Sequence record: MN850564.1
Source of the DNA: Escherichia phage humlepung
DNA length: 64,000 nucleotides
Reading direction: 5' to 3' (one strand)
This document shows, piece after piece, positions 1-57,852 of this stretch. Within the stretch, counting starts at the first letter, position 1; each line of letters begins with the position of its first letter. The notes under the pieces were generated by a model. It was given only the letters and a program-made list of their open reading frames with translations, had not been told where the DNA came from and searched no databases. The translations under genes were made by a program, and so were the position numbers.

Positions 1-177
1 ATCGTTAATTTCTACGCAGACCTGCAACTGTCTTATCATGGTCAGTTGAAAGTGGTAGGTATCCACCGTGATGCAGAACTGAAAGACCTGCTAACTCTTG
101 AATCAAGCGTTGATGCTACTGAAGTCAAGAAAGCTCTGGCTGCTAAAGGTATTGATTTCGTACCAACTGGCCTGTAA
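1..177 (+). CDS. 3-prime end of a capsid-module protein (partial; decoration/scaffold-like position)
   Basis: Open frame from window edge to TAA 175-177, immediately upstream of the capsid gene. Confidence 0.4.
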   Translation: MVNFYADLQLSYHGQLKVVGIHRDAELKDLLTLESSVDATEVKKALAAKGIDFVPTGL

Positions 178-210
178 TAACAATAATAAGACATTCTGGA
201 GAATTTTACA

Positions 211-1317
211 ATGTTGACTAATTCTGAAAAAAGCAGATTTTTCCTTGCTGACCTGACTGGTGAAGTCCAGTCTATCCCTAATACTTATGGGTATATTTCC
301 AACTTAGGTCTGTTCCGTTCAGCACCAATCACCCAAACTACTTTCCTTATGGACTTGACTGATTGGGATGTTAGCTTGCTTGATGCGGTAGACCGTGATA
401 GCCGTAAAGCAGAGACTAGCGCACCTGAGCGTGTTCGTCAAATCAGCTTCCCAATGATGTACTTCAAAGAAGTTGAAAGCATCACTCCTGATGAAATTCA
501 GGGTGTACGTCAGCCAGGCACTGCAAACGAACTGACTACTGAAGCTGTAGTACGTGCTAAGAAGCTGATGAAGATTCGTACCAAGTTCGATATTACTCGT
601 GAGTTCCTGTTTATGCAAGCTCTGAAGGGTAAAGTTGTTGATGCTCGTGGTACTCTGTACGCTGACCTGTACAAGCAGTTCGACGTTGAGAAGAAGACTG
701 TTTACTTCGACCTTGACAACCCTAATGCTGACATTGACGCTTCTATTGAAGAACTGCGTATGCACATGGAAGACGAAGCTAAGACTGGCACTGTAATCAA
801 CGGTGAAGAAATTCACGTAGTTGTTGACCGTGTATTCTTCAGCAAACTGGTTAAGCATCCTAAGATTCGTGACGCTTATCTTGCACAGCAGACCCCACTG
901 GCTTGGCAACAGATTACTGGTTCTCTGAGAACTGGTGGTACTGACGGCGTTCAGGCTCATATGAACACCTTCTACTACGGTGGTGTTAAGTTTGTCCAGT
1001 ACAACGGTAAGTTCAAAGACAAGCGTGGTAAGGTTCACACTCTGGTTAGCATTGACAGCGTAGCAGACACTGTTGGTGTTGGTCATGCTTTCCCTAACGT
1101 AGCTATGCTGGGTGAAGCTAACAACATCTTCGAAGTTGCATATGGTCCATGTCCTAAGATGGGTTACGCAAATACACTTGGTCAGGAACTGTATGTATTC
1201 GAATACGAAAAAGACCGTGACGAAGGTATTGACTTCGAAGCTCACTCTTACATGCTGCCATACTGTACTCGTCCTCAGTTGCTGGTAGATGTTCGCGCTG
1301 ATGCTGAAGACAAATAA
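211..1317 (+). CDS. major capsid protein (putative)
   Basis: 368 aa; first large gene of the structural operon, followed by connector/tail genes; assignment by position and size. Confidence 0.5.
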   Translation: MLTNSEKSRFFLADLTGEVQSIPNTYGYISNLGLFRSAPITQTTFLMDLTDWDVSLLDAVDRDSRKAETSAPERVRQISFPMMYFKEVESITPDEIQGVRQPGTANELTTEAVVRAKKLMKIRTKFDITREFLFMQALKGKVVDARGTLYADLYKQFDVEKKTVYFDLDNPNADIDASIEELRMHMEDEAKTGTVINGEEIHVVVDRVFFSKLVKHPKIRDAYLAQQTPLAWQQITGSLRTGGTDGVQAHMNTFYYGGVKFVQYNGKFKDKRGKVHTLVSIDSVADTVGVGHAFPNVAMLGEANNIFEVAYGPCPKMGYANTLGQELYVFEYEKDRDEGIDFEAHSYMLPYCTRPQLLVDVRADAEDK

Positions 1318-1338
1318 TATTCTTAAGGAGGGTTATGA

Positions 1339-1788
1339 ATGTGTTATACAGGCGACCCAGCCAATAACCCTCTTGATAGAGTAAGAATCCTCTGCACAGA
1401 CACCAATAATGATGAAATTCTTATTGAGCAGTCTGTGCTAGAGTGGTTCTATCTAGAATCTGGAAAGGATGAAAAGAAAGCAGCCATCAAAGCTCTTAAA
1501 TATTTACTCTTTCAAGTAGCCAAGATGGGAGATGAGAAGGTTGGTGGTGTTTATTTACGTAACTCTTCCAGATTCAAGTCTCTGAAAGCTGTTTATGACG
1601 ACCTTGTTAAAAGCTCTGTTTCAGGACTACCCTATGCAGGTGGTATTAATCAGTGTGATATTGACATGCGTCGTCAGAATCCTTGCTCTGTCAAGAAATA
1701 CACAGAATATGGTGATGCTGCCAGATACGAAGGCAGAGATTACTGCAACCGTGTTAATGGCGTATTTATTATCGAGCGAGATGAATAA
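1339..1788 (+). CDS. hypothetical head/connector-module protein
   Basis: ATG 1339 preceded by AAGGAGGG; 149 aa; tightly packed after the capsid gene. Confidence 0.45.
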   Translation: MCYTGDPANNPLDRVRILCTDTNNDEILIEQSVLEWFYLESGKDEKKAAIKALKYLLFQVAKMGDEKVGGVYLRNSSRFKSLKAVYDDLVKSSVSGLPYAGGINQCDIDMRRQNPCSVKKYTEYGDAARYEGRDYCNRVNGVFIIERDE

Positions 1789-2270
1789 TGGTTAAAAGGG
1801 TTATTCACCCCGCTAGAGCAAAATTAGTCGGGGCTATGAAGAACTTGCAAACGGCTAATGCTCAAGTTGGGTATTTTCAAGAACAAGGTCAACATAGCTC
1901 TGGTTTTTCTTATCCTGCTTTAATGTATTTACAAGAAGTTATTGGGGTTCCTTCAGCTTCTGGTAAAGTATATCGTAGGTTGTTTGAAATCACTATGATG
2001 CTAAACAAACAGACCTTGTTAGAGCAGACTAAGAAGAATCTATATAAGCAACTTAGCAGTCTCAACACAGACCCTTCAGATACCTTAGAAGCATTTGCAA
2101 AGAATGCTCAAAAGGCAATTAAAAGGGGCTTTGGTAATTCTGCTATCCTCCCTCCTAACGCACCTTCCACAGTCAAGAAAAAAGGCTTTAACGCACCTCT
2201 TGTTGAGACAGGTGACTTAAGAGATAACCTTGCTTATAAAATTTCTACTAAGAAGGGTATTAAGAAATGA
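1788..2270 (+). CDS. hypothetical head-tail joining protein
   Basis: ATGA overlap with upstream stop; 160 aa. Confidence 0.45.
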   Translation: MVKRVIHPARAKLVGAMKNLQTANAQVGYFQEQGQHSSGFSYPALMYLQEVIGVPSASGKVYRRLFEITMMLNKQTLLEQTKKNLYKQLSSLNTDPSDTLEAFAKNAQKAIKRGFGNSAILPPNAPSTVKKKGFNAPLVETGDLRDNLAYKISTKKGIKK

Positions 2271-2668
2271 GACTCTTAAACAGACACAGCTTTGTAGTAA
2301 AGCGTAAAGTCTCTGAAGACGGTTATTATAATGATGATGGTGATTGGGTAGCTTCACAAGATATTGTAGAGGTTAACTGCAAAGGTAATATCCAACCATA
2401 TATCAAAGGTTCTGTAAAGAATGGTACACAGATTGCTTTACCGGAAGGTATCAGGCTTACCGATACAAGAATCCTGTATACCACATATAAACTTAGAACT
2501 TCAGATGATGTAGAGTGGAATGAGTCTGATATTGTTATGATTGATGGTCATGAGTATGAAGTATTTATGACTATGGATTGGTCACAGCAATTAGCCCATA
2601 CGTCCCATTATGAATATATCATTATTAGAAGGGATAAAATGAATGCAGTTAGAAACAGCAGAACTTGA
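2267..2668 (+). CDS. hypothetical head-tail joining protein
   Basis: ATGA overlap at 2267-2270; 133 aa. Confidence 0.45.
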   Translation: MRLLNRHSFVVKRKVSEDGYYNDDGDWVASQDIVEVNCKGNIQPYIKGSVKNGTQIALPEGIRLTDTRILYTTYKLRTSDDVEWNESDIVMIDGHEYEVFMTMDWSQQLAHTSHYEYIIIRRDKMNAVRNSRT

Positions 2669-3242
2669 AAAAGGTCTAGTTAGAACCTTAGTGGATGTTA
2701 TTGGTCACAGACTAGCTCGTGATAAAAATAATAGGCCAAACGTAATTAGAGCTTACCCTTCTGATAACTCAAATGACAAAGGTTTAAAACCTGACCAGCC
2801 ATTTATCACCGTATATTGTCAAGATGCTGCAACACCTTATGGTTGGGTTCTTGATAAGTTTGTTGAGGATGATGTAGTTTGCTACAGAATTGCTTTTCAG
2901 ATTCCAGTATTAATTACGGTGAATGGTAAAGGTGCTCACAGTATTATGCTTGAGCTTAAACAACGATTAGAGATGAGTTCAGTCAGAGATTTAATCCTTG
3001 AAGAAACAGGAGCTACAGTACTAGACACTGGAGCTATCCCGAATGACTATACTTATCTCAATACAGATTTCGAAAATTCTGCACCTCTTGTTGTAACTCT
3101 TGTAAAAAACTCAGTCCTGAAGGATGAACGTGGAAGTATTATTGAGCGTGTCATTGTTGATGGTGAGTTGGTTTATGAAGAAGGACAAGAGCCACCAGAA
3201 TATACTATCCATCTAGATGTAGACTCCAAAGGGGTAAAATAA
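2643..3242 (+). CDS. hypothetical tail completion/neck protein
   Basis: 199 aa; overlaps upstream gene by 26 nt; no alternative in-frame ATG. Confidence 0.4.
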   Translation: MQLETAELEKGLVRTLVDVIGHRLARDKNNRPNVIRAYPSDNSNDKGLKPDQPFITVYCQDAATPYGWVLDKFVEDDVVCYRIAFQIPVLITVNGKGAHSIMLELKQRLEMSSVRDLILEETGATVLDTGAIPNDYTYLNTDFENSAPLVVTLVKNSVLKDERGSIIERVIVDGELVYEEGQEPPEYTIHLDVDSKGVK

Positions 3243-4595
3243 ATGTGGAATCCAATTGTTAATGTAGATATTACATTGAACACCGCAGGAACTACAAGAG
3301 AAGGTTTTGGTTTGCCACTATTCTTAGCTTCAACAGATAACTTTGAAGAAAGAGTACGTGGTTACACTTCCTTAACTGAAGTTGCTGAAGATTTCGATGA
3401 GAATACTGCTGCATATAAGGCTGCTAAACAACTTTGGAGTCAGACTCCTAAAGTAACTCAGCTTTATATCGGTAGACGCGCTATGCAGTACACTGTATCA
3501 ATTCCTGATGCCGTTACCGAAAGTACAGACTACTCAATTACTGTAGCTGTTGGCGGTGGAATTTCTCAACCATACCAGTACACAGCACAAGATTCAGACA
3601 CTGCTGAGGTAGTGTTGCAACAGTTTAAAACACAGATTGAAGCTGACCCAACAATCAAAGATAAGGTTTCTGTGAATGTAACTGGTAGCAATGGCTCTGC
3701 CACAATGATTATTACCAAAGCTGGTGATAATGACTTTGTGAAAGTAACAACCACAGCACAGACTGTATATATTGCAAGTACAACTGCTGATACAGCAGCA
3801 ACTGCTCTGGCAGCTATAGAAGCTTACTCTACTGACTGGTATTTCATTGCAGCAGAAGACAGAACTCAACAGTTTGTCTTAGCAATGGCTTCTGAGATTC
3901 AGGCTCGTAAGAAAATCTTCTTTACGGCTAACTCCGATGTAACAGCCCTACAAGGTACAGAATTAGCCAGTGCAAATGATGTTCCAGCACAGCTTGCTAA
4001 GAATATGTACACTCGTACAGTTTGCTTGTGGCATCACGCAGCAGCAGAAGATTATCCAGAGATGGCATACATTGCTTATGGTGCTCCATATGATGCAGGC
4101 TCAATTGCTTGGGGTAATGCTCAGCTAACTGGCGTAGCAGCTTCTCTACAACCACCTAATCAGAGACCTCTGACAAGTATTCAGAAGTCTGCTTTAGATG
4201 TACGTCACTGTAACTTTATTGACCTTGATGGTGGTGTTCCAGTGGTTCGTAGAGGGATTACTTCTGGTGGGGAATGGATTGATATCGTCCGTGGTGTTGA
4301 CTGGTTAGAATCAGACCTGAAAACTTCTCTGAGAGACTTGCTAATTAACCAGAAGGGTGGTAAGATTACTTATGATGATACTGGTATTACCCGTATTCGT
4401 CAAGTCATTGAAACCTCTCTGCAAAGAGCAGTCAACAGAAACTTCCTGTCATCTTACACAGTTAATGTTCCTAAAGCCTCTCAAGTTGCTTTAGCAGACA
4501 AGAAAGCACGTATCCTGAAAGATGTTACCTTCGCAGGTATCTTAGCAGGGGCTATCTTGGATGTTGACTTGAAAGGTACAGTGGCTTACGAATAA
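3243..4595 (+). CDS. tail sheath protein (putative)
   Basis: 450 aa; immediately upstream of a 148-aa tube-sized gene, chaperones and tape measure (myovirus order). Confidence 0.5.
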   Translation: MWNPIVNVDITLNTAGTTREGFGLPLFLASTDNFEERVRGYTSLTEVAEDFDENTAAYKAAKQLWSQTPKVTQLYIGRRAMQYTVSIPDAVTESTDYSITVAVGGGISQPYQYTAQDSDTAEVVLQQFKTQIEADPTIKDKVSVNVTGSNGSATMIITKAGDNDFVKVTTTAQTVYIASTTADTAATALAAIEAYSTDWYFIAAEDRTQQFVLAMASEIQARKKIFFTANSDVTALQGTELASANDVPAQLAKNMYTRTVCLWHHAAAEDYPEMAYIAYGAPYDAGSIAWGNAQLTGVAASLQPPNQRPLTSIQKSALDVRHCNFIDLDGGVPVVRRGITSGGEWIDIVRGVDWLESDLKTSLRDLLINQKGGKITYDDTGITRIRQVIETSLQRAVNRNFLSSYTVNVPKASQVALADKKARILKDVTFAGILAGAILDVDLKGTVAYE

Positions 4596-4610
4596 TAGAG
4601 GTAAATTGGA

Positions 4611-5057
4611 ATGGCTATGTATCAGCAATATTCCCCTAAAGACGTTGTATGTAGCTGGAACGGCATTGCTATTGAAGGCTTTGCTCCAGACTCATTCTTG
4701 CGTCTACAGAGAACATCACCACTTGTGACACCAGTTGTTGGTGCAGGTGGTCAGGTTGCTCTGACACGAAATGCAGACAAGACAGGTACTATTGAGATTG
4801 AGCTAATGCAGACTTCTCTCTCTAACCAGATGCTTTCTGCAATTCAAGCTAAACAAGACAATATGGAACTTGAAGAAGATATCTCTTCTAACTTCGTAAT
4901 CTACGACCCATCAGGCTCTGTTCTGGCAACTGGTATTAACGCTTGGTTGCAGGAGTTACCACAGATTGAACTTGGTCGTGACCAGAACTCTAAAACTTGG
5001 ATTTTTGGTTGTGAGAAGTTAGACTACACTTCTACAATTCCAGCGTCAAGTGTTTAA
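4611..5057 (+). CDS. tail tube protein (putative)
   Basis: 148 aa between sheath and chaperone genes; followed by a strong terminator. Confidence 0.5.
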   Translation: MAMYQQYSPKDVVCSWNGIAIEGFAPDSFLRLQRTSPLVTPVVGAGGQVALTRNADKTGTIEIELMQTSLSNQMLSAIQAKQDNMELEEDISSNFVIYDPSGSVLATGINAWLQELPQIELGRDQNSKTWIFGCEKLDYTSTIPASSV

Positions 5058-5069
5058 TAAATCCTATAA

Positions 5070-5103
5070 GGGGGAGACTTTAAAAGGTCTTCCCCTTTTT
5101 TGT
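5070..5103 (+). terminator. rho-independent terminator after tube gene
   Basis: GGGGGAGAC...GTCTTCCCC hairpin followed by T8. Confidence 0.6.
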
Positions 5104-5129
5104 TTCTTTTAAAGTATTAAGGAATCACA

Positions 5130-5528
5130 ATGAAAACAGAATCTAGAGTAATTAATGGTAAGAAAGTAAATATCGTTCTGCTTGGGGCAAGAGATGGTAT
5201 TAAGATGTCTATGAAGTTGGGTAAGATTGTTGTCCCAACCTTTGCACAGATGCTATCAAGTCTGACTGACAAGGGTAAGAAAGAAGCTCCAATGGTTCCA
5301 TTTAAAGAACTTGTTGAAGCTTGTTTTGACAGAATTGAAGAAATTAACCTTGAAGAGATGGCTACCCTGCTGTTTCAAGGGGCAACTGTTGATGACTTCC
5401 CACTTAATATTGATACGTACTTCCAAGCAAACTACGGTGAGTTTATTGATTACTTAGCATTTGCGCTGGAGGCAAACTTCGGAAGTTTTTTCGAAGCAAG
5501 CATTTTCAAAAGCCTAACTTCTCAGTAA
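5130..5528 (+). CDS. tail assembly chaperone (G-like, putative)
   Basis: 132 aa between tube and tape measure; RBS AAGGAA; contains T6C slippery run near its 3-prime end. Confidence 0.45.
   Translation: MKTESRVINGKKVNIVLLGARDGIKMSMKLGKIVVPTFAQMLSSLTDKGKKEAPMVPFKELVEACFDRIEEINLEEMATLLFQGATVDDFPLNIDTYFQANYGEFIDYLAFALEANFGSFFEASIFKSLTSQ
5486..5492 (+). other. candidate -1 programmed frameshift site T_TTT_TTC
   Basis: Heptamer in frame 0 of 5130..5528; the -1 frame is open from 5450 to 5770. Confidence 0.35.
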
Positions 5529-5530
5529 AC

Positions 5531-5769
5531 ATGGGTAACACTCTACAGACACCACTAACTGATGCTGCTGTAGAGGCAACCTATGAAGAAGCAGACGAGA
5601 TGAAATTTGTGCTTGCTATTTATGGTATGGAAGGGTGTAAAGAAACACTTGACCAACTCTTTGCTATGACATTCTCTGATTTATTATCATTGAGACAATT
5701 TCTTGAGATTCAGAGGTCGTATAAAGAGGAAATTGCTTACAACGAACTTAGAAGAGCAGGAAAAATGTA

Positions 5770-5770
<1 letters not shown>
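5531..5770 (+). CDS. tail assembly chaperone extension (T-like; -1 frame relative to upstream gene)
   Basis: 79 aa from ATG 5531; lies in -1 frame of the preceding chaperone, directly upstream of tape measure. Confidence 0.4.
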
Positions 5771-13768
<7,998 letters not shown>

Positions 13769-13770
13769 TA

Positions 13771-14919
13771 ATGGCAGTAGGTGAAATTCAAATTAGTGCC
13801 TTGCCTCAAGCAGCCTTACCAATTGACCTTAGTGATATCTTCCATCTTAAACAAGGTATCGAGGATAAAAGATGTACTCTTGAGCAATTACTTGCTCCAC
13901 ACTCAAGCCTAAGAAATAACCCTCATGGTGTTACTAAGACACAAATTGGTTTAGATAACGTTATTAATGCTCTCCAGTTAGTCGCTGAAAATAACTTATC
14001 AGACATTGTTAATGTAGCTGAGGCAAGAGCAAATCTACAGATTATGTCTTCAGAAGAGGTTAATAATCTTATTCAACAGCATATTGATGATAAGAGCAAC
14101 CCACACAATACTACTAAGGCACAGGTTGGGTTAAGCAATGTTCAGAACTGGGTGACATCTAACCTTTATAATGAGGATGCGGATAAGTATGCTACAGCAA
14201 GAGCAGTAAATAACTTGTACAAGGCTGTTCAGGCTTCTTATCCAGTAGGTACTATCCATCTTTCTATGAATCCTGCAAACCCCTCTACATATTTAATTTG
14301 TGGAGGTACTTGGGAGTTAGTCTCAAAAGGGAGAGCACTTGTAGGTTATGATAGTGATTCTAGGCCAGTTGGTTCAACGTTTGGTTCACAGACTACTGCA
14401 TTGACGGTTAATAACATCCCTGCACATACCCACTCAGTGTATGTCACTGGTGGTGGTCACACTCATGGTGCAACGGCCTCTATCAGTGCTTTTGATTATG
14501 GCACTAAAGGGACTACAACGTTTGACTACGGAACCAAGACCGTATCTACTTACGACTATGGCAACAGAACAACAAGTGCCGCTGGCTTAACACAAACAAC
14601 ATTCATTAACCGTGGCTATGCTGATGGTGGCTGGAGAGGTTTATCGGTTGAGGGGGCAAGCTATGACCCAAGAGCTACGTTGACAACAGCTAACAACCAC
14701 ACTCACTCTGTAGCAATTGGTGCGCATAATCATACGGTTGGTATTGGTGCTCACAGCCATTCTGTTGCAATTGGTTCCCACAGCCACTCAGCAACAGTAA
14801 CAGTAACCGGAGCAGGTGAGCATTCGCACTCTGGCACAACTGGTCCAACTGGTTCTGGTCAAGCATTTAGTGTTGAACAGCCATCCTTCGTATTGTATGT
14901 ATGGCAGAGAACAGCTTAA
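13771..14919 (+). CDS. tail fibre protein with C-terminal His-box (HxH) repeats
   Basis: 382 aa; repeated NPHxxTKAQ(I/V)GLxNV motifs; C-terminal HTHS/HNHT/HSHS repeats ending ...VWQRTA, paralogous to the next gene. Confidence 0.6.
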   Translation: MAVGEIQISALPQAALPIDLSDIFHLKQGIEDKRCTLEQLLAPHSSLRNNPHGVTKTQIGLDNVINALQLVAENNLSDIVNVAEARANLQIMSSEEVNNLIQQHIDDKSNPHNTTKAQVGLSNVQNWVTSNLYNEDADKYATARAVNNLYKAVQASYPVGTIHLSMNPANPSTYLICGGTWELVSKGRALVGYDSDSRPVGSTFGSQTTALTVNNIPAHTHSVYVTGGGHTHGATASISAFDYGTKGTTTFDYGTKTVSTYDYGNRTTSAAGLTQTTFINRGYADGGWRGLSVEGASYDPRATLTTANNHTHSVAIGAHNHTVGIGAHSHSVAIGSHSHSATVTVTGAGEHSHSGTTGPTGSGQAFSVEQPSFVLYVWQRTA

Positions 14920-14928
14920 TTTCTTTAC

Positions 14929-14950
14929 AGGGGCTGTATAGCCCCTTTTA
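14929..14950 (+). terminator. hairpin terminator between the two fibre genes
   Basis: AGGGGCTGTATAGCCCCT followed by TTTT; preceded by the CTTTACAG motif shared with the downstream cassette family. Confidence 0.45.
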
Positions 14951-14965
14951 AGAGGAAAATTTATA

Positions 14966-17305
14966 ATGGCAGATTACAAGTTGAGTGAATTAAACTCAAT
15001 CGACACAATCCGTTCAGACGACCTTCTCCATGTCAGGGTTAAAAAGAGACCTGAAATGTTAGGTGATGAAGACCGTCGAATGACCTATCAAGACTTCTTA
15101 GCGTCTTTTAAACTAGAAAGATTTGTTCAGATTGCTGGTAGCACTATGACGGGTGACTTAGGAATTGTCAAGTTACTTTATGGTGGTAAGGCAGTATTTG
15201 ACCCTACAGACTCTTCTGAGATTACTATGGGGGATGTTTTAAAGGCTTTTAAAATCAATGCAAACGGTCTTAAACTAACTATTGCAGATGCTTCAAGGTC
15301 TGCAACTGTTTATCATACTCTGAATAAGCCAAGCCCTAATGAACTTGGGATGAGAACTAATGAAGAGAATGACGCAAGATATGCAAGGTTGGCTGTTACA
15401 AACACATTTAACTCTAAACAGACCATTGTAGCAAATGGGGAACAGTTAACACTAAGGTCTCCTGTGAGTGGGGATAGAGCATACTCTGCTATTGTAGGTA
15501 GGGATGCAAGTAATGAAAAAACTTGGGCTATTGGGAACCTGATTAGGGGTAGTCTTGATGTTCAAATCGAGAGTAAACTAGGTTCCATCCTCACTCTAGG
15601 CACGGCTGCTTCTTTTAATAGGTCTTTATCAATCAATGGTCAAGTGCAACCTTCTGACTTCTCTAACTTGGATGCAAGATACTTCACACAGACAGCAGCT
15701 AATCAGAGATTTGCACAGCTAGTTGGCAATAACACCTTCAGGGGTATTAACAATTTTGTAGGAGAGTTCAATATCACCAGAGATAACGCTGTGCTAGTCA
15801 TTAAGAATGCCACTGCTGCAACTGGACTATACTTGCTGGGGCAGAAGGCTGATGGGACAAACAAGTTCTACTTAGGGACTGATAACTCTGATTCTGCAGT
15901 CAACCTACATAACTACACCACGAGTACAACTATCTCTTTGTCAAATGTGATTACCACTACTAAGACTGTGAAAATCACTGGTCAAGTTCAGCCTTCAGAT
16001 TGGGCTAACATTGACTCTAGATACATTCCAGCAGCAACATTAAGTACAATTGCAAGAACTAATGCAAGTAACACGTTCACTGCAAAGCAGGTTATTAACA
16101 CTAATGGTGAAGCTCTTGTGTTACAAGGAAAAACAACCGCCGCACTTTACATTAGGGGTAAGGACTATGATGGAACGAATAGGTGGTATGTTGGCAATGA
16201 TGACGGTAGTGACACTGTTAGTTTGTATAACTATAAAACTGGTAAAAACCTAAGCATTGGTTCCGAAGTATCAATTAATGCAAACTTAGTAATTGGTGGT
16301 CAAGTACAACCTAGCAACTTCACAAACTTTGATGCAAGGTATTACGGTAAAGCCGAAGCCGATTCAAAGTATTTCTGGTCAGCATTCAGAGCTTCGAAGA
16401 CCGAGGCTGCTGGTGGTGTGGCTTGGGACCAACCATCAGGAATCTATCTTGAGACAAAATCTAGCGGGCAAAACCGTTTAGTCTTGCACATGGCCTCTAA
16501 TGCGAAAGCCCTAACACCATCTGCACAATTAAGATTTGAATCGAAAAATGGTGGGATGTGGTACAGGTCAGCCAGAGACACACTTGGCTTTGAGGTTGAA
16601 TGGTCTAAGGTTTACACTGAAGCTCAGAAACCTACCCCTTCAGAGATTGGTGCATACACTAAAGCTGAAACTGACCAGAAGATTGCAGAAGCAATTAGTG
16701 ACTCTACAGACCTGAATAAAATCTATCCAGTAGGTATTGTGACGTGGTTTAACAGTAATGTTAACCCTAATACAGCACTGCCTGGCCTAACTTGGACGTA
16801 TCTGAAGAATGGTGTTGGTAGGACTATTAGAATTGCAGCAGCAAATGGTTCAGATGTTGCTACAACTGGTGGTTCAGATTCTGTAACGTTAGCTGTTGGT
16901 AACTTACCTTCGCACACGCACAGTTTTTCTGCGACTACCTCATCGTTTGACTACGGAACAAAAAACACTAACACGACTGGTGCTCACACTCACTCTGTAA
17001 GTGGCTCTACTTCATCTGCTGGTAACCACAACCATTCCATTTCGTGGATTGGTCAGAACTCTACACACTACTCTGGTGGTGGTGGTGGTAGTATTGGTGT
17101 AGGACCGGGTTACACCGATGTTAACGGTGCTCACACCCACTCCGTAAGTGGTACTGCCGCTTCTGCTGGTAACCATGCTCACAGTGTTGGTATTGGTGCT
17201 CACAGTCATACAGTAAGTGGTAACACTGGTGGTACAGGTTCTGGTTCAGCATTTAGTGTTACTAACCAGTTCTACAAGTTAATGGCTTGGGTGAGAACTG
17301 CTTAA
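14966..17305 (+). CDS. long tail fibre protein with His-box C-terminus
   Basis: 779 aa; three internal ~110-aa repeats containing GQVQPS(D/N)(F/W)xN(L/I/F)D(A/S)RY; C-terminus HTHS/HNHS/HAHS/HSHT repeats ending ...MAWVRTA. Confidence 0.6.
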   Translation: MADYKLSELNSIDTIRSDDLLHVRVKKRPEMLGDEDRRMTYQDFLASFKLERFVQIAGSTMTGDLGIVKLLYGGKAVFDPTDSSEITMGDVLKAFKINANGLKLTIADASRSATVYHTLNKPSPNELGMRTNEENDARYARLAVTNTFNSKQTIVANGEQLTLRSPVSGDRAYSAIVGRDASNEKTWAIGNLIRGSLDVQIESKLGSILTLGTAASFNRSLSINGQVQPSDFSNLDARYFTQTAANQRFAQLVGNNTFRGINNFVGEFNITRDNAVLVIKNATAATGLYLLGQKADGTNKFYLGTDNSDSAVNLHNYTTSTTISLSNVITTTKTVKITGQVQPSDWANIDSRYIPAATLSTIARTNASNTFTAKQVINTNGEALVLQGKTTAALYIRGKDYDGTNRWYVGNDDGSDTVSLYNYKTGKNLSIGSEVSINANLVIGGQVQPSNFTNFDARYYGKAEADSKYFWSAFRASKTEAAGGVAWDQPSGIYLETKSSGQNRLVLHMASNAKALTPSAQLRFESKNGGMWYRSARDTLGFEVEWSKVYTEAQKPTPSEIGAYTKAETDQKIAEAISDSTDLNKIYPVGIVTWFNSNVNPNTALPGLTWTYLKNGVGRTIRIAAANGSDVATTGGSDSVTLAVGNLPSHTHSFSATTSSFDYGTKNTNTTGAHTHSVSGSTSSAGNHNHSISWIGQNSTHYSGGGGGSIGVGPGYTDVNGAHTHSVSGTAASAGNHAHSVGIGAHSHTVSGNTGGTGSGSAFSVTNQFYKLMAWVRTA

Positions 17306-17579: not shown

Positions 17580-17951
17580 ATGAAGTGGCTAGAGGAAGCT
17601 TTTAAAAATAATATTGGTGCAATTGTAGTTGGTATTTTTAGTGTTATCGGAATGTATACCACTATGCAGGTTTCAAGTGGTAAACAAGAAGTGTCTGTCA
17701 CAACAAAGTTACAGCAGTTGGATAATTATTCCAAAAGTAACTATTCAGCTATTCGTGATTTACAGTCTGACATGAGACTGATTCAGCTAGGGATGGAGAA
17801 CCAGAAAGTTCAGTTAGAGAATGTTAAGGGTGAAAACGCAAAACTTACCAAAACTCTTGATAAATTCTCTGACAGTGTGAACAATCTGGCTCAATCAGTA
17901 TCAGCCTTGCAAGCTATTACTGAGAAGAACACAAAGAATACTGAAAAATAA
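17580..17951 (+). CDS. membrane-anchored coiled-coil protein (holin/spanin-like or fibre-associated)
   Basis: 123 aa; N-terminal TM segment IGAIVVGIFSVIGMY then helical region; ATGA-coupled. Confidence 0.45.
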   Translation: MKWLEEAFKNNIGAIVVGIFSVIGMYTTMQVSSGKQEVSVTTKLQQLDNYSKSNYSAIRDLQSDMRLIQLGMENQKVQLENVKGENAKLTKTLDKFSDSVNNLAQSVSALQAITEKNTKNTEK

Positions 17952-47279: not shown

Positions 47280-49061
47280 ATGACTAAATCGCTTTACGCA
47301 GTACCAGCAGGTTTAAACGCAGATGCTTACAAATCTGGTCATGTTTACCAGTACCCTAGTGCAACAGAATACTTGATGTTCAACCTGACACCACGTAGTG
47401 ACAAATGGTTTAACAGCCCCTTAGCAATTGATGGTGTAGTAGCTTTTGGTATTCAACGTTTCGTTAAAGATTACCTGATAGACCACTGGAACGCCACTTT
47501 CTTTGAACGTGATAAAAAAGAAGCAATTGACGAAATCTTAGAAGTTATGAATGGTGTTCTGGGGAAAGATGCTATCGGTCGAGAGCATTGGGAAGCACTT
47601 CACGACTTAGGTTATCTACCAGTTGAAGTGTACGCTGTAGAAGAAGGCACAGTTGTCCCGATGCGTGTCCCAATGATTGTCTTCCAGAACACTGTTTCAG
47701 GTTTCCATTGGGTAGCAGGTTATCTAGAAGACGCTTTCTCTGCTGAGATTTGGAAGACTTGCACCATTGCAACTATTGCATTGCACTACAAACGTATCTG
47801 TAAGAAGTGGGCTGACCTTACTTGCGACAATGAATTACATTTACCTTATCAGTGCCATGACTTTGCTATGCGTGGTATGTCCGGCTTTACCGATGACGCA
47901 TTTAATGCTGTAGGTCACTTAACCAGCTTTAAAGGAACTGATAGCTTCCCTGCTGTATACACGGCTAAACGCATCTATGGACAGTCTTACCCAATTTCTG
48001 ATATTGGTAGTTCTGTACCAGCCACTGAACACTCTGTAATGTGTGCAAACATTGCTTGGGAAGGTGGTAATGAATTGATTGAAGAGGAAAGACGCTTTAA
48101 AGGTGAGTTGCAAACCTTCCGTCGTTTCTTAACAGAAACTTACCCAACTGGTATTGCAAGTATTGTTTCAGATACTTATAACTTCTGGAGAACTGTGTCA
48201 GAAATCTTACCAGCACTTCGTAAAGAAATTATGGAACGTGATGGTAAGCTGGTAATTCGCCCTGACTCTGGAGACCCTGTACATATTGTCACAGGCTATA
48301 AAGCAATCCACTTAGAGTGTGCTAAGAAGGCTTATTACGAACACTTAAGCAAGCTTGAAGCCAGCGACACAATGTTGAATGCTGTTCTGAACATGAAGCT
48401 TGAAAACATCAATTATGGTATTGCTGGATGGCTACTGTCAGAAGGCTACGAAATGGTTGTTGACAGAGAAGACTTTGAAGTTGCTGATACAGTGCTGTTG
48501 AAAAACGCTTATATGGTTGGTTCTGCAAACGTTGTAACACGTCCTGTAGCTGAGATTGATGGAGCTATTAAGACACTGTACAACATCTTTGGGGGAACTA
48601 TTAACTCTAAAGGGTTTAAGGTACTGGATGAGCATATCGGACTTATCTATGGTGACTCTATCACGCTGGAACGTGCAAACGAAATCCTGAAGCGTCTGTA
48701 TGAAATGGGTTTTGCAAGCTCTAACGTAGTGTTTGGCGTAGGTTCTTACACTTACCAGTACATGACTCGTGACACCTTTGCATTTGCTGTCAAAGCAACT
48801 CTTGCAAGCATTGGTGGTAAAGAGATTATGCTTGCAAAAGACCCTAAAACAGATAGTGGTGTTAAGAAATCTGCCTTTGGTGGTGTAGCACCTATGTGGG
48901 ATGGTGACAAGCTGAAAGCTATAGATGGCTATGGATTCCAGAGTTTTGCAGATGTACTTGACCACCCAGCTTGTGCCTTACGTTTAGTCTTTAGTGACTC
49001 TGAGCAGTTCGGTTACACAACTCTTGGGGATATTCGAAATAATATTGACAAGCAGCTTTAA
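47280..49061 (+). CDS. nadV: nicotinamide phosphoribosyltransferase-like enzyme (candidate Namat of NARP1)
   Basis: 593 aa NAMPT/PBEF-family sized protein directly downstream of the Prs-like gene. Confidence 0.7.
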   Translation: MTKSLYAVPAGLNADAYKSGHVYQYPSATEYLMFNLTPRSDKWFNSPLAIDGVVAFGIQRFVKDYLIDHWNATFFERDKKEAIDEILEVMNGVLGKDAIGREHWEALHDLGYLPVEVYAVEEGTVVPMRVPMIVFQNTVSGFHWVAGYLEDAFSAEIWKTCTIATIALHYKRICKKWADLTCDNELHLPYQCHDFAMRGMSGFTDDAFNAVGHLTSFKGTDSFPAVYTAKRIYGQSYPISDIGSSVPATEHSVMCANIAWEGGNELIEEERRFKGELQTFRRFLTETYPTGIASIVSDTYNFWRTVSEILPALRKEIMERDGKLVIRPDSGDPVHIVTGYKAIHLECAKKAYYEHLSKLEASDTMLNAVLNMKLENINYGIAGWLLSEGYEMVVDREDFEVADTVLLKNAYMVGSANVVTRPVAEIDGAIKTLYNIFGGTINSKGFKVLDEHIGLIYGDSITLERANEILKRLYEMGFASSNVVFGVGSYTYQYMTRDTFAFAVKATLASIGGKEIMLAKDPKTDSGVKKSAFGGVAPMWDGDKLKAIDGYGFQSFADVLDHPACALRLVFSDSEQFGYTTLGDIRNNIDKQL

Positions 49062-49075
49062 AAGTATATGATAAG

Positions 49076-49100
49076 AGGCTCCTACGGGAGCCTTTTTAAT
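49076..49100 (+). terminator. rho-independent terminator
   Basis: AGGCTCC-TACG-GGAGCCT followed by T5. Confidence 0.6.
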
Positions 49101-52082: not shown

Positions 52083-53192
52083 ATGACTACTAAAACTAAA
52101 GCACAGATTGACGCAGAAATTTACGAACTGGTTAAAGAAGGTAAGCTGACTAAAACAGCTATTGCACAGAAATTCAATACTTCAACCCGTTCAGTTGGTC
52201 GTGCTGTAGAGCGTCATGAAGCAACCTTAAAAGGTAAGAAAAAGGTAGCTTCTAAACCAGCTACGAAGACTTTGAAGCAAGTTGCTAAATCAGTTAAAAA
52301 GAAAGCTGACAAACCAGTTGAAAAGGTTGTTAAAGAGCCTGTACAGAAAGCTCCGGTAAATAAACTGCATGAAGCTATGCAGAATGGCAACCAAATTGAG
52401 TACATGATTACTGGCGACTCTGTTATCATGACTTTCGGTGCAGATTCTGAAATCGTTGAATCTACCCATCCGAACTACAAAGAAATCGTGATGGCTGTTG
52501 TATCCGGTGAGTATAAGAAAGCTTTCGAACTGATGAACATTCGTAAGTCTATCGAAAACTTCACTCAGGGTGCTATCACCATCAAAGGTGACAAGTTATT
52601 CTACGGTGCTGTTGAGATGCGTTCTACTCTGGTTGACCGTATTCTTCACATGATGAAGACTGGAGATAAGGGTTTTGAACGCCTTGTGATGTTCTTCGAA
52701 AAACTGATGGAAAACCCATCTAAAGACTCTGTAGAACAACTTTGGGGATTCGTATCTCACCTTGATGTTGAAATTGATGAAGAAGGCTACATCATTGGTT
52801 GGAAGAAAGTCTCTACTCATGAAGGCAAGCTGGTTGACTCCCACACCTACAGAGTACCTAATGATTTGGGTAACATTGTAGAAATGCCACGTTGGATGGT
52901 TGATAATAACCGTAACGTGACTTGCTCTCAGGGTCTTCACGTTGGTGCTTGGGATTATGTTCGTTGCTTCTCAGGTGATACAATCCTGAAGGTTCGTGTC
53001 CATCCACGAGATGTTGTATCTGTTCCAACTGATTACAACGATATGAAGATGCGTTCGTCTCGTTATGAAGTTGCAGCAATCGTTGATAATCAACGTAAAG
53101 TGCTGAAAGAATGGGATGGCAAGACTGAAGCTTTGCATGTCATCGTTGGCACTGCTGGTGAACTAATCTCCCAACGTAAACGTGAAATCTAA
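52083..53192 (+). CDS. rIIB: rIIB-like protein
   Basis: 369 aa directly downstream of rIIA-like gene; basic N-terminal region. Confidence 0.5.
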   Translation: MTTKTKAQIDAEIYELVKEGKLTKTAIAQKFNTSTRSVGRAVERHEATLKGKKKVASKPATKTLKQVAKSVKKKADKPVEKVVKEPVQKAPVNKLHEAMQNGNQIEYMITGDSVIMTFGADSEIVESTHPNYKEIVMAVVSGEYKKAFELMNIRKSIENFTQGAITIKGDKLFYGAVEMRSTLVDRILHMMKTGDKGFERLVMFFEKLMENPSKDSVEQLWGFVSHLDVEIDEEGYIIGWKKVSTHEGKLVDSHTYRVPNDLGNIVEMPRWMVDNNRNVTCSQGLHVGAWDYVRCFSGDTILKVRVHPRDVVSVPTDYNDMKMRSSRYEVAAIVDNQRKVLKEWDGKTEALHVIVGTAGELISQRKREI

Positions 53193-53206
53193 TAAGTAAT
53201 TTCTTA

Positions 53207-53232
53207 AAAGGCTGCTTCGGCGGCCTTTTTTA
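53207..53232 (+). terminator. rho-independent terminator
   Basis: AGGCTGC-TTCG-GCGGCCT followed by T6. Confidence 0.55.
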
Positions 53233-53292
53233 TTTGTATTTTGTGCAGAGTGCTGTATAATTGTTGTCACGATAAACTAAACAGGAGAACCA

Positions 53293-53841
53293 ATGAAGAA
53301 ATTGATTCTAGGTTTGTGCTTAATGTTTACAGCACACTTATCTTATGCAGTTGACTGCCCAGAGCTATCAATTAGCCAAAAAGTAAACATGTTAAAAGCT
53401 TACCAGTATGGTGAGAATAACATGGGTAAAGGTTGGGGTATCACTCTAGCTGCTATAGCCTTACAAGAGTCAGAGTTAGGTCTGAAGGTAGAGAATAAAA
53501 AGACACATGATTATGGTATCTTCCAGAATCACTTGAAGACTGTTGTAAAGCGTAACAAAATTAGTCCTAATGTGGCTAAAAAGAAACTCTTAAAAGACTT
53601 TGACTATGCTGCGAAGGAAACTCACAAAGAGCTTGAGTTTTGGACAAAGGTGCATGGTCAGCCAAAGTCAAAGAAGACTTTACAAAAAGTTTTAGCATCA
53701 TATAATGCTGGGTATTCGTACAAAATCCCTAAAGCTAAGAAATATTCTCAAGATGTCTATAACAACATGAAAGTCATTGCTCAATGTGAATTTGCAATAA
53801 ACATTTCTAAGGTAAACCATGAAAAAATTAAAAAAGTCTGA
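53293..53841 (+). CDS. secreted lytic transglycosylase-like protein (SLT/lysozyme-like domain)
   Basis: Signal-like N-terminus MKKLILGLCLMFTAHLSYA; ALQESELGL...DYGIFQN resembles the SLT catalytic E-S...GxxQ motif. Confidence 0.45.
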   Translation: MKKLILGLCLMFTAHLSYAVDCPELSISQKVNMLKAYQYGENNMGKGWGITLAAIALQESELGLKVENKKTHDYGIFQNHLKTVVKRNKISPNVAKKKLLKDFDYAAKETHKELEFWTKVHGQPKSKKTLQKVLASYNAGYSYKIPKAKKYSQDVYNNMKVIAQCEFAINISKVNHEKIKKV

Positions 53842-54514
53842 TGAAGTATTGTGTCATGCTTACGACTTACATCCTCATGAGTTAGGTCTTGATTCCTGTG
53901 TATGGACTCCAGAACAGTGTAGGGATTTTGAAGACACTGCAAGAGAAGTTGTATGTTCACTCGAAGAGTTCCACACATCAGAGCCAATTGTGAATGTTGT
54001 AGATAAAGAGACTGGACAAACTATAGGTGTAAGTCGTGATAGCTTAGTCATAGTCAATAAAGACCTTGTAGAAAAAGGTAACCTCATCTTAGCAGATATT
54101 GATGGTGTTCTTACAAATTTTAATCACGAAGATTGCTCAACGGAATTGACTGATGGGTCATTCTCACAGTACACTAATCTTCTTGACTCTGTAAGAGCAA
54201 AACCAACGTATGTCTTTAGTATTATTGATGCAATTGCTAATCATGCTGCCATTGGACTCTTGACAGCGAGAGGTGAATCTCAGAGAATACCTACTGAGAT
54301 GTTTTTAAGGCATAACACAGAGCATGACTACATGCTTTTTATGCGTGGTTTTGGGACTAACTCTATAAGTGCAGAAAGTTTGAAAGTGAGGATGATTCAG
54401 TCTTGCATTCTGCCTTACTTTAATATAGTATGTTTTATAGAAGACACAGAGAAGAATGTGCAGAAGGTGAACAGAATACTTCCACACATCAAAACCATGT
54501 TAGTTAAACATTGA
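53819..54514 (+). CDS. HAD-superfamily hydrolase-like protein (C-terminal domain)
   Basis: LILADIDGVLTNF matches HAD motif I (DxDGT/V); 231 aa. Confidence 0.4.
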   Translation: MKKLKKSDEVLCHAYDLHPHELGLDSCVWTPEQCRDFEDTAREVVCSLEEFHTSEPIVNVVDKETGQTIGVSRDSLVIVNKDLVEKGNLILADIDGVLTNFNHEDCSTELTDGSFSQYTNLLDSVRAKPTYVFSIIDAIANHAAIGLLTARGESQRIPTEMFLRHNTEHDYMLFMRGFGTNSISAESLKVRMIQSCILPYFNIVCFIEDTEKNVQKVNRILPHIKTMLVKH

Positions 54515-54524
54515 GAGAAAACTT

Positions 54525-54989
54525 ATGAACAATATCATTACGGTAGCACTGGACGTTACGGCAAACAAATCTGAAGTAGTTCGTAACATTATCAAGAGCA
54601 ACTTTGAGGGTAAAATTTTCCGTGCTGTCAACGTAAAAGCAGACGGTAACATCCGAGAGTATCGTGCTCTTTTGAATGTTAAGAAACACGTAAAAGGTTC
54701 TGGCTCAACCACAGCACACAAAGAAAACCTGATGACTATCTATGATATGGGGATGGCTTCAGAATTAGGTGCTGAAGGTATTGTTAAAGAAGGTGCTCCG
54801 TATCGCTCTTTCAATCTGGAAACTGCTCTTATGCTTTCCTTTACAAGTGGTTCTAAAACAACTACTTATCTCTTTACTGATGCTGCAACGGTATCTGCTA
54901 TCAAGGATAGCACTGTCAAAGCTGGGGTAGCTGCTGCTGCAAAAGCTTCTTCGATGGCTGCAAATGTCCTTGCTAAAGTCCTCGGTTAA
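54525..54989 (+). CDS. hypothetical protein
   Basis: 154 aa; followed by strong terminator. Confidence 0.5.
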   Translation: MNNIITVALDVTANKSEVVRNIIKSNFEGKIFRAVNVKADGNIREYRALLNVKKHVKGSGSTTAHKENLMTIYDMGMASELGAEGIVKEGAPYRSFNLETALMLSFTSGSKTTTYLFTDAATVSAIKDSTVKAGVAAAAKASSMAANVLAKVLG

Positions 54990-55000
54990 GGTTAAGATAC

Positions 55001-55024
55001 AGGCTCCTTCGGGAGCCTTTTTCA
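55001..55024 (+). terminator. rho-independent terminator
   Basis: AGGCTCC-TTCG-GGAGCCT followed by T5. Confidence 0.6.
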
Positions 55025-55041: not shown

Positions 55042-55389
55042 ATGACATTTAAAGAGTTCTGTCAAGCTACTTTCATAATTGTTTTCTTAGTTGGTGCAGG
55101 TGTCTGGGGAGGATACTCTTACAGAGACTATCAAGTTGCTGAAGCTGAGCTAAATAATGAGAAACTAATAAGTGTTGCTAAAGATGCTTATCAGGAAGGT
55201 TTAGCCACACTCAGCACCAATTACAAAAATGATTTGAAAGATGTGCTTGCTAAGAATAAGCATACAAAAGAGGTACTAACGTATGAAAAGACTAAGCCAG
55301 AGTTTTATAATGTTTGTGTTACTGATAATTATGTCAGGGTGTTCAACGAACAAAGTGAGCAGTACATTCAAAAACTCCCAAGTAAGTGA
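55042..55389 (+). CDS. i-spanin-like protein (N-terminal TM plus helical periplasmic domain)
   Basis: 115 aa; TM segment ATFIIVFLVGAGVWGGYSY; RBS AGGAGA; 3-prime end overlapped by lipoprotein gene. Confidence 0.4.
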   Translation: MTFKEFCQATFIIVFLVGAGVWGGYSYRDYQVAEAELNNEKLISVAKDAYQEGLATLSTNYKNDLKDVLAKNKHTKEVLTYEKTKPEFYNVCVTDNYVRVFNEQSEQYIQKLPSK

Positions 55390-55552
55390 GAGTGATAAGT
55401 ACACTCAAGAAGAATCACGGTATATCATCAAAGGCAACACAGGTAGTGATGTAGCAGCAGCACTTGAGTTCTACCGTGACGGATTTTACCAGTGTACAAT
55501 CAAAGCTAATAACCTTATTGACATGATTTTATTAGGGAATAAGCAGCAATGA
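55283..55552 (+). CDS. o-spanin-like lipoprotein (overlapping, +1 frame)
   Basis: 89 aa; MKRLSQSFIMFVLLIIMSGC lipobox-like signal; starts inside preceding gene. Confidence 0.4.
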   Translation: MKRLSQSFIMFVLLIIMSGCSTNKVSSTFKNSQVSESDKYTQEESRYIIKGNTGSDVAAALEFYRDGFYQCTIKANNLIDMILLGNKQQ

Positions 55553-57331: not shown

Positions 57332-57405
57332 GAAACTTCGTAGCATATTCACAATAGACTAAGCCTTTCTTATCTGGTAAATTTTTTCAGGTAAGGAGGG
57401 CTTTT

Positions 57406-57585
57406 TCATTTTAGAATTGTGCAGGTAGAGTTATGTAGAGAAATCTATAGAGAAAATTTTGAACTCCAAAGAGAAAATTCATTTTCAAACTGTGCAGGTA
57501 ATCTCCAAAGAGCTTTTTCATTTTCAAAACGTGCAGACCCCGCTCAGGTCGGGCAAGAAAAATCATTTTAGAATTGTGCAGGTAG
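57406..57585 (+). repeat. iteron-like direct repeats (4 copies of ~23 bp TCATTTT(A/C)(G/A)AA(T/C)(T/C)GTGCAGGTA)
   Basis: Copies at 57406, 57479, 57518, 57563; copies 1 and 4 identical; CTCCAAAGAG also repeated. Confidence 0.6.
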
Positions 57586-57600
57586 GTTTTTATAGACAGC

Positions 57601-57640
57601 CAGCCCAACCCCTCTCCCCCTCTTACTCCCCCTCTCCCCA
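57601..57640 (+). repeat. polypyrimidine C-rich tract
   Basis: CAGCCCAACCCCTCTCCCCCTCTTACTCCCCCTCTCCCC, between iterons and strong promoter. Confidence 0.5.
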
Positions 57641-57760
57641 AAAGTCAAGAGAAAAATTTGTAGCGGATTGAAAAATAATTCTTGATTTGCGTTCTGTTTT
57701 GTGGTAGTCGTGCGCACCCGTTTCATTACAGTTTTGCCAAAAATATTTTTAAGATTTTTA

Positions 57761-57852
57761 TTGACTCTTTGAACGTGGTTATCTAATATTTACATCAACG
57801 GGGAGGGAATGACCTTCCCCACTAAATAAAATCCTAAACTGGAGATTCAAAA
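57761..57852 (+). promoter_or_regulatory. cassette type 1 (promoter TTGACT-N17-TAATAT, 5-prime hairpin, conserved leader with GGAG)
   Basis: Hairpin GGGGAGGGAATGACCTTCCCC at 57800-57820; leader ACTAAATAAAATCCTAAACTGGAGATTCAAAAATG. Confidence 0.65.

Follow-up and report, generated by a model that had tools for sequence, protein, structure and literature searches.

At 53293–53841 on the + strand of Escherichia phage humlepung, within the 64,000-nucleotide stretch of record MN850564.1 that we analysed (the window, whose positions are used throughout), lies a gene for a small protein that is, with high confidence, an exported enzyme of the SLT fold. We favour, with moderate confidence, reading it as the T4 Vs.1 orthologue of Felixounavirus, an accessory periplasmic lytic transglycosylase acting by the mechanism proposed below. 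A first-pass annotation had described a signal-peptide-bearing, SLT-like transglycosylase and offered two interpretations, a secreted endolysin or a periplasm-targeted peptidoglycan remodelling enzyme. The observation as a whole is confirmed, and its interpretation is supported in part—the second option names the right class of protein, as the SLT/GH23 fold, the catalytic Glu and the Sec signal peptide indicate.

Export signal, fold and catalytic motifs

The features of the gene and its product are given below; fractions, here and throughout, refer to an alignment of 96 family sequences, mostly 25–35% identical to the humlepung protein.

53293..53841, + strand: coding sequence of the predicted Vs.1-family lytic transglycosylase precursor (ATG start, 182 residues; matches to phrog_600 and T4 Vs.1)
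53283..53287, + strand: Shine-Dalgarno sequence AGGAG, 5 nucleotides ahead of the ATG and kept in Mooglevirus Sf18
53293..53349, + strand: signal peptide, residues 1–19 (MKKLILGLCLMFTAHLSYA), from sequence features, with a predicted signal peptidase I cut after A19
53350..53838, + strand: predicted mature protein, residues 20–182 (163 residues, 18.6 kDa, isoelectric point 9.7)
53356..53358, + strand: codon of Cys22, proposed disulfide partner of Cys165 (codon 53785–53787)
53467..53472, + strand: motif I, Glu-Ser (E59-S60), at the end of helix 48–60 and aligned with E-S of EtgA
53509..53526, + strand: motif II (GxxQ), D73-Y-G-I-F-Q78, in pairwise alignment with D-I-G-I-M-Q of EtgA
53698..53712, + strand: motif III, S136-Y-N-A-G140 (Y137 96/96, N138 94/96, G140 96/96)
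53743..53745, + strand: motif IV tyrosine, Y151 (96/96)

The ratio of nonsynonymous to synonymous substitution rates (dN/dS) between this gene and its Mooglevirus Sf18 orthologue, which has 76% protein identity, is 0.13; the reading frame is therefore real and under purifying selection. Its SLT/GH23 core spans approximately residues 25–160, and a poorly conserved, low-confidence tail occupies approximately residues 166–182.

The N-terminus bears out the cleavable-looking signal peptide of the first-pass annotation. It consists of an n-region (M-K-K), an h-region of 13 residues rich in Leu, Ile and Phe (L4–L16) and a c-region (S17-Y18-A19) that obeys the -3/-1 rule, with cleavage predicted between Ala and Val in S-Y-A/V-D; an equivalent hydrophobic segment is found in 92 of the 96 family members. 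Residues 1–20 have a low predicted local distance difference test score (pLDDT) in our AlphaFold2 (AF2) model. These sequence features argue for export of the precursor by Sec and its subsequent cleavage. A SAR endolysin was considered and rejected. A SAR domain spans the membrane at the N-terminus without being cleaved and is weakly hydrophobic, with ~18–22 residues rich in Gly, Ala and Ser; the hydrophobic core here, 13 residues rich in Leu, Ile and Phe with a signal peptidase I site after it, is too short and too hydrophobic. A lipoprotein of the Mlt type was likewise rejected. A lipobox has the form [LVI][ASTVI][GAS]C and closes the signal peptide; L6-G7-L8-C9 does not qualify, with Leu at -1 and a place 5 hydrophobic residues past the n-region, and Cys9 is not conserved in distant homologues.

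The mature protein probably carries a disulfide between Cys22 and Cys165. A Cys 7 or 10 residues before Q29 (itself invariant in the alignment) and a Cys 14 residues after Y151 are present singly in 65/96 and 69/96 homologues and co-occur in 64/96, which is the pattern of a disulfide made in the oxidising periplasm.

All four signatures of family-1 lytic transglycosylases—E-S, G-x-x-Q, [AS]-Y-N-x-G and Tyr—are present. The ALQES...GIFQ motif that had been singled out as lysozyme-like or SLT-type is indeed there, at residues 56–60 and 75–78, and it contains the catalytic E59, invariant in the family (96/96), and S60 (95/96). Motif II is more variable: G75 is kept in 90/96 sequences, D73 in 55/96 and Q78 in 53/96, with His in its place in 30. 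T4 Vs.1 passes the cut-off of Pfam SLT (PF01464) with 25.1 bits, and 80/96 family members match that profile (E<=0.01; best 3e-14); membership of SLT therefore holds at the level of the family.

The AF2 model (pLDDT 88.5, predicted template modelling score 0.82) has a lysozyme-like alpha/beta fold that can be superposed on solved lytic transglycosylases. The SLT-like fold by which the first-pass annotation proposed to judge its assignment is thus found in the structural model, and every top Foldseek match in the PDB is GH23; in a viral structure library, the best matches are phage 'SLT domain' proteins. Structure comparison gave the following values.

MltF: 13.7
Slt: 12.5
MltC: 12.5 (2.6 A / 134)
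Cj0843: 12.4
Goose-type lysozyme: 12.2 (2.5 A / 129)
Slt70: 11.9
MltE: 11.7
EtgA: 10.6 (2.4 A / 109)
phiKZ gp144: 9.8

Sequence identity to Slt70/Slt, MltC, MltE, MltF and goose-type lysozyme (GH23) is 13–17%. Housekeeping transglycosylases are lipoproteins or multidomain proteins, whereas the phage protein is a minimal soluble domain. A single-sequence phmmer search against the PDB returned no match, and NCBIfam has no model for the Vs.1 family; with the profile of the 96 sequences, the best PDB sequence match is EtgA (E 8e-6), and pairwise alignment with it lines up E-S, D73-Y-G-I-F-Q, YNAGY and Y151. We presume transglycosylase rather than hydrolase chemistry.

The 96-sequence alignment bears on whether the protein is an enzyme at all. 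It might keep the SLT fold only as a catalytically dead peptidoglycan binder, or as a decoy, for example one that binds host wall enzymes or inhibitors; the humlepung protein lies under the Pfam SLT cut-off, and His takes the place of Q78 in about a third of the family. We consider this very improbable, since Glu is kept in 96/96 sequences and the Ser, YN-G and Tyr motifs vary little or not at all among sequences of only 25–35% identity—the pattern expected of an active enzyme.

The Vs.1 family and its spread

What the first-pass annotation missed is that the protein belongs to a known family, T4 Vs.1 or phrog_600, for which the annotations 'putative lysin' and 'SLT domain protein' already exist. 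Residues 1–168 of 182 match positions 1–174 of 178 in the phrog_600 profile (E 2e-57), which is labelled 'unknown function'; T4 Vs.1 (NP_049725), with 181 residues to the 182 here, is 32% identical over 174 residues (BLASTP E 2e-16). As a sequence feature the gene is ordinary and already known at the annotation level: an identical protein (100%) is deposited from Escherichia phage Andreotti as a 'putative lysin', and papers have noted the family's similarity to SLT from the T4 genome analyses onward. Nolan et al. reported a marginal SLT match of vs.1 in 2006 (PMC1524935), and in 2022 a lysozyme-like nature was predicted for phrog_600 (PMC9409062); the family is long recognised.

Homologues were found by tblastn in 1,899 of 50,697 phage records (3.7%), including T4-like phages, Kuttervirus, and phages of Aeromonas, Vibrio, Acinetobacter and Erwinia; among the carriers are Straboviridae, Ackermannviridae, Ounavirinae, marine and jumbo myophages, and Vi01-like and Felix O1-like phages. 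An exhaustive profile search gave 1,232 representatives of 50%-identity clusters at E<=1e-3, nearly all of 160–200 residues and matching from residue 1. The Felixounavirus protein and T4 Vs.1 share a signal peptide with a single SLT domain, the invariant residues and a location among early genes. They differ in that T4 Vs.1 lacks the Cys22/Cys165 pair and Asp73 (Ala there), both of which the Felixounavirus protein has, along with a poorly conserved C-terminal tail of 17 residues; the neighbours are rIIB and pseT in Felixounavirus versus regB and vs in T4.

Several database entries for family members call for comment. The Vs.1 homologue is labelled 'RegB endoribonuclease' in several genomes, among them KF669653 (Marshall_110), MT074477 and KP869105, apparently because vs.1 adjoins regB in T4. 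A contig filed under Campylobacter coli (GCA_053226485.1, ACBEZJ010000004.1, 214,766 bp) encodes a Vs.1-like transglycosylase ~1.4 kb from a gene for chimallin, the shell protein of the phiKZ-type phage nucleus, and looks like a jumbo-phage genome within a bacterial assembly; we therefore rejected this homologue as a sign of bacterial origin. When two Campylobacter-like members of the family served as tblastn queries, no phage of Campylobacter stood among the matches listed. Chromosomal bacterial homologues do occur in Vibrio chagasii (locus 8001–10146) and Helicobacter monodelphidis (8001–11842), in both cases with a chemotaxis gene of the CheV type (CheW plus receiver) no more than ~2 kb away; this may be chance, or it may hint at a role linked to motility in the bacteria.

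Timing, lysis genes and possible function

In the mechanism that we propose, the host Sec system would export the precursor and signal peptidase I would cut it after Ala19, giving a soluble, basic, 18.6-kDa periplasmic enzyme that is probably stapled by the Cys22–Cys165 disulfide. The mature protein would be a single-domain family-1 (GH23, SLT-type) lytic transglycosylase whose single acid/base would be Glu59, the residue at the end of a helix that faces the substrate groove; the bond cut would be that between N-acetylmuramic acid (MurNAc) and N-acetylglucosamine (GlcNAc), MurNAc-beta-1,4-GlcNAc, leaving 1,6-anhydroMurNAc ends. Production would probably be early or in mid-infection, from the gene's own host-type promoter and as for T4 vs.1, and the enzyme would accumulate in the periplasm well before lysis. 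Its most likely role would be to cut nicks in the sacculus or loosen it from within the periplasm during infection, thereby remodelling the wall or weakening it in advance, with the holin-endolysin-spanin system then completing lysis; our confidence in this accessory, wall-conditioning role as the specific biology is low.

In time-resolved omics data, T4 vs.1 is an early RNA and a middle protein (PMC9697503 supplement). In humlepung, the transglycosylase gene lies beside rIIA/rIIB, among early genes; it is the first of a terminator-bracketed unit with a candidate host-type promoter, and its expression is therefore probably early or in mid-infection.

The lysis genes argue against the reading as a secreted endolysin put forward in the first-pass annotation. 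The window belongs to a Felixounavirus, a Felix O1-like myophage, and is collinear with Escherichia phage adrianh (98.6% identity over 4 kb), which has a separate GH24 endolysin of 154 residues (Pfam Phage_lysozyme, E 4.8e-40) without a hydrophobic N-terminus, a holin and a two-component spanin. In the window, the holin is at 17580–17951 and the spanins are at 55042–55552, 1.2 kb downstream of the transglycosylase gene; the GH24 endolysin gene is not in the window but past its end. Lysis by T4 is the work of gpe and gpt. Small genes of early type or of nucleotide metabolism surround the family member in T4, Kuttervirus Marshall, Cobetia phage Carin-5, Shewanella phage 1/4 and Mooglevirus Sf18, and in none of these five phages is there a holin or endolysin beside it. 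The protein is thus unlikely to be the phage's main endolysin, and would instead be a second wall enzyme.

A more specific form of the endolysin idea is modelled on Lys44 of Oenococcus phage fOg44: a Sec-dependent, signal-peptide endolysin that is exported in advance and stays inactive until the holin depolarises the energised membrane. A cleavable Sec signal peptide is predicted here, the spanin genes are close by, and many GenBank records name the gene 'putative lysin' or 'lysin'. The architecture is also that of the endolysin of Campylobacter Fletchervirus F352 (188 residues, signal peptide plus SLT), whose dependence on Sec and holin was demonstrated in E. coli (PMC7692668). Both proteins come from large virulent myophages and are encoded outside a lysis cassette; however, the F352 enzyme is the sole endolysin there, whereas Felixounavirus has the GH24 endolysin. 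We rejected the F352 enzyme as an orthologue, since hhalign gives a probability of 0.8% and both hhalign and BLASTP align the signal peptides only, with no detectable homology beyond them. As an analogue, the F352 enzyme shows that a protein of this kind can serve as an endolysin, though in a phage without another. Set against this form of the idea are the signal-less GH24 endolysin and the holin encoded elsewhere in adrianh, the lack of holin or endolysin adjacency in the phages sampled, and T4 itself, which has the orthologue Vs.1, with an early transcript, yet lyses with gpe and gpt; we regard it as improbable.

It is possible, although we are doubtful, that the enzyme is a specialised, non-lytic transglycosylase of the 'space-making' or envelope-conditioning kind, with a purpose apart from final lysis. 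Its closest solved relative by profile, EtgA, belongs to type III secretion and shares D-x-G-x-x-Q, and the phage protein resembles IpgF, IagB and VirB1, which are small enzymes with a signal peptide and a single domain. The early expression of the T4 homologue, the early-gene location next to rIIA/rIIB and the conservation of the gene in ~1,900 large virulent phages, all with endolysins of their own, fit this as well. Yet the vicinity of the gene encodes neither a partner machine nor a regulator, and the Asp is not universal (55/96; T4 Vs.1 has Ala). The likeness to enzymes of the EtgA/IpgF/IagB/VirB1/P19 type is one of sequence and architecture only: the phage gene is not linked to a secretion or pilus machine (rIIB, polynucleotide kinase and early genes surround it), the phage-encoded enzyme has no known counterpart of the activating partner EscI, and the phage family has its own N-terminal helix with the invariant Q29. 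The candidate roles are all speculation—a change in the sacculus that excludes superinfecting phages, envelope upkeep in prolonged infection or lysis inhibition by trimming of uncross-linked glycan strands, or release of anhydromuropeptides for recycling or signalling. Extended tentatively to the family, this idea makes the Vs.1 proteins early, Sec-exported, 'specialised' transglycosylases that re-engineer the sacculus and whose job is not lysis; they might, for example, block superinfection or the entry of competitor DNA, stabilise the wall during decay of wall synthesis or lysis inhibition, or prime the wall for the holin-released endolysin to act within seconds.

We give almost no credence to a virion-associated, wall-piercing enzyme that acts at DNA entry in the manner of T7 gp16, PRD1 P7 and phiKZ gp181. 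A cleavable Sec signal would route the protein to the periplasm, away from virion assembly in the cytoplasm; the gene is outside the structural module (~1–15400 by adrianh collinearity), ~38 kb from the tail genes; and the product is a free 18-kDa domain with no fusion to a tail protein. Compared by description, the Staphylococcus Kayvirus Tgl (PMC7150955) differs in its Gram-positive host and its IsaA/SceD-like lineage.

Several points weigh against the accessory periplasmic transglycosylase that we favour. The humlepung protein itself scores 18.8 bits with Pfam SLT (E 1.2e-3), below the gathering cut-off of 21.3, and its Foldseek matches in the PDB have weak E-values (>=0.014). D73, which aligns with the motif Asp of EtgA, may leave room for a lysozyme-like hydrolytic component. 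A strict consensus scan called no promoter at 53234–53261, where the -35 is poor. An active periplasmic transglycosylase would need tolerance or restraint from early infection onward, and no regulator is evident. Lastly, the literature on vs.1, phrog_600 and the Felix O1 gene yielded annotation-level remarks only, and no functional study was found.

The question raised by the family is what purpose an exported, early-made second wall enzyme serves in so many large virulent phages that also have the holin-endolysin-spanin set. If the non-lytic reading is true, the family would be a widespread, unrecognised class of periplasm-acting phage takeover functions; from a practical standpoint, a small, basic, periplasm-adapted enzyme could be of interest as a muralytic module for Gram-negative bacteria.

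Transcription unit and neighbouring features

The surroundings of the transglycosylase gene include the following elements.

53206..53235 (T-run included), + strand: intrinsic terminator ending the rIIB transcript (scan and folding; kept in adrianh and Sf18)
53234..53261, + strand: sigma-70-like promoter candidate (read from the sequence; 9/12 in a looser scan)
53819..54514, + strand: polynucleotide kinase/phosphatase gene, pseT-like (phrog_3970, E 2.9e-134)
54525..54989, + strand: third gene of the presumed operon, function unknown (phrog_2267)
55001..55018, + strand: intrinsic terminator closing the presumed three-gene unit (scan)

The gene was correctly placed downstream of rIIB (phrog_609, E 3e-88), which ends at 53192, ahead of the ATG at 53293. 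The terminator that it was said to follow is real: the hairpin at 53206–53229 has a 10-bp GC-rich stem and a UUCG loop followed by T6, and it folds at -14.7 kcal/mol (z = -4.3), with 0/200 shuffles folding equally well. The start of the polynucleotide kinase gene overlaps the transglycosylase stop by 23 nucleotides, which places the two in one transcription unit; with the phrog_2267 reading frame they form the presumed unit, which has terminators at both ends.

The claim of a promoter of the gene's own at 53233–53261 stands in part. The candidate has a perfect -10 (TATAAT, 53256–53261, 6/6) after a 16-bp spacer, whereas its -35 (TTGTAT, 53234–53239) is weak at 3/6, and the strict scan is silent, as noted above. 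In Sf18, TTG and TATAAT are kept and the -35 is TTGAAA (11/12), and this conservation makes a host-type promoter ahead of the gene plausible. For the conserved spacer sequence TGTGCAG, a role as a promoter element specific to the phage was considered; the window shows no enrichment of it (15 observed, 11.8 expected).

Further promoter-like and terminator-like arrangements were seen in the window. Inside the transglycosylase gene, 113 nucleotides before the kinase start, lies the near-consensus promoter-like site TTTACA-16-TATAAT (11/12; 53679–53706, + strand), whose -10 (53701–53706) is made up of the TAT-AAT codons of Tyr137-Asn138 in motif III, Tyr137 being invariant; the site may owe its existence to conservation of the protein, or it may be an internal promoter that is put to use. 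The strong terminator at 55001–55018 ends 24 nucleotides before the i-spanin start at 55042 and no promoter was called between them, so that spanin expression may need read-through. Where the nicotinamide phosphoribosyltransferase gene ends, a near-consensus promoter-like TTGACA-16-TATGAT (11/12) abuts a terminator hairpin at 49073–49096—an odd promoter-then-terminator order (49045–49096, + strand). Finally, Tandem Repeats Finder gave no report for a 520-nucleotide non-coding gap at 57332–57852, which holds four copies of a ~25-nucleotide repeat, CATTTT(A/C)(G/A)AA(T/C)(T/C)GTGCAGGTA, at ~57402, 57476, 57516 and 57560, followed by a C-rich tract at ~57598–57640; the gap could be a regulatory or origin-like region.
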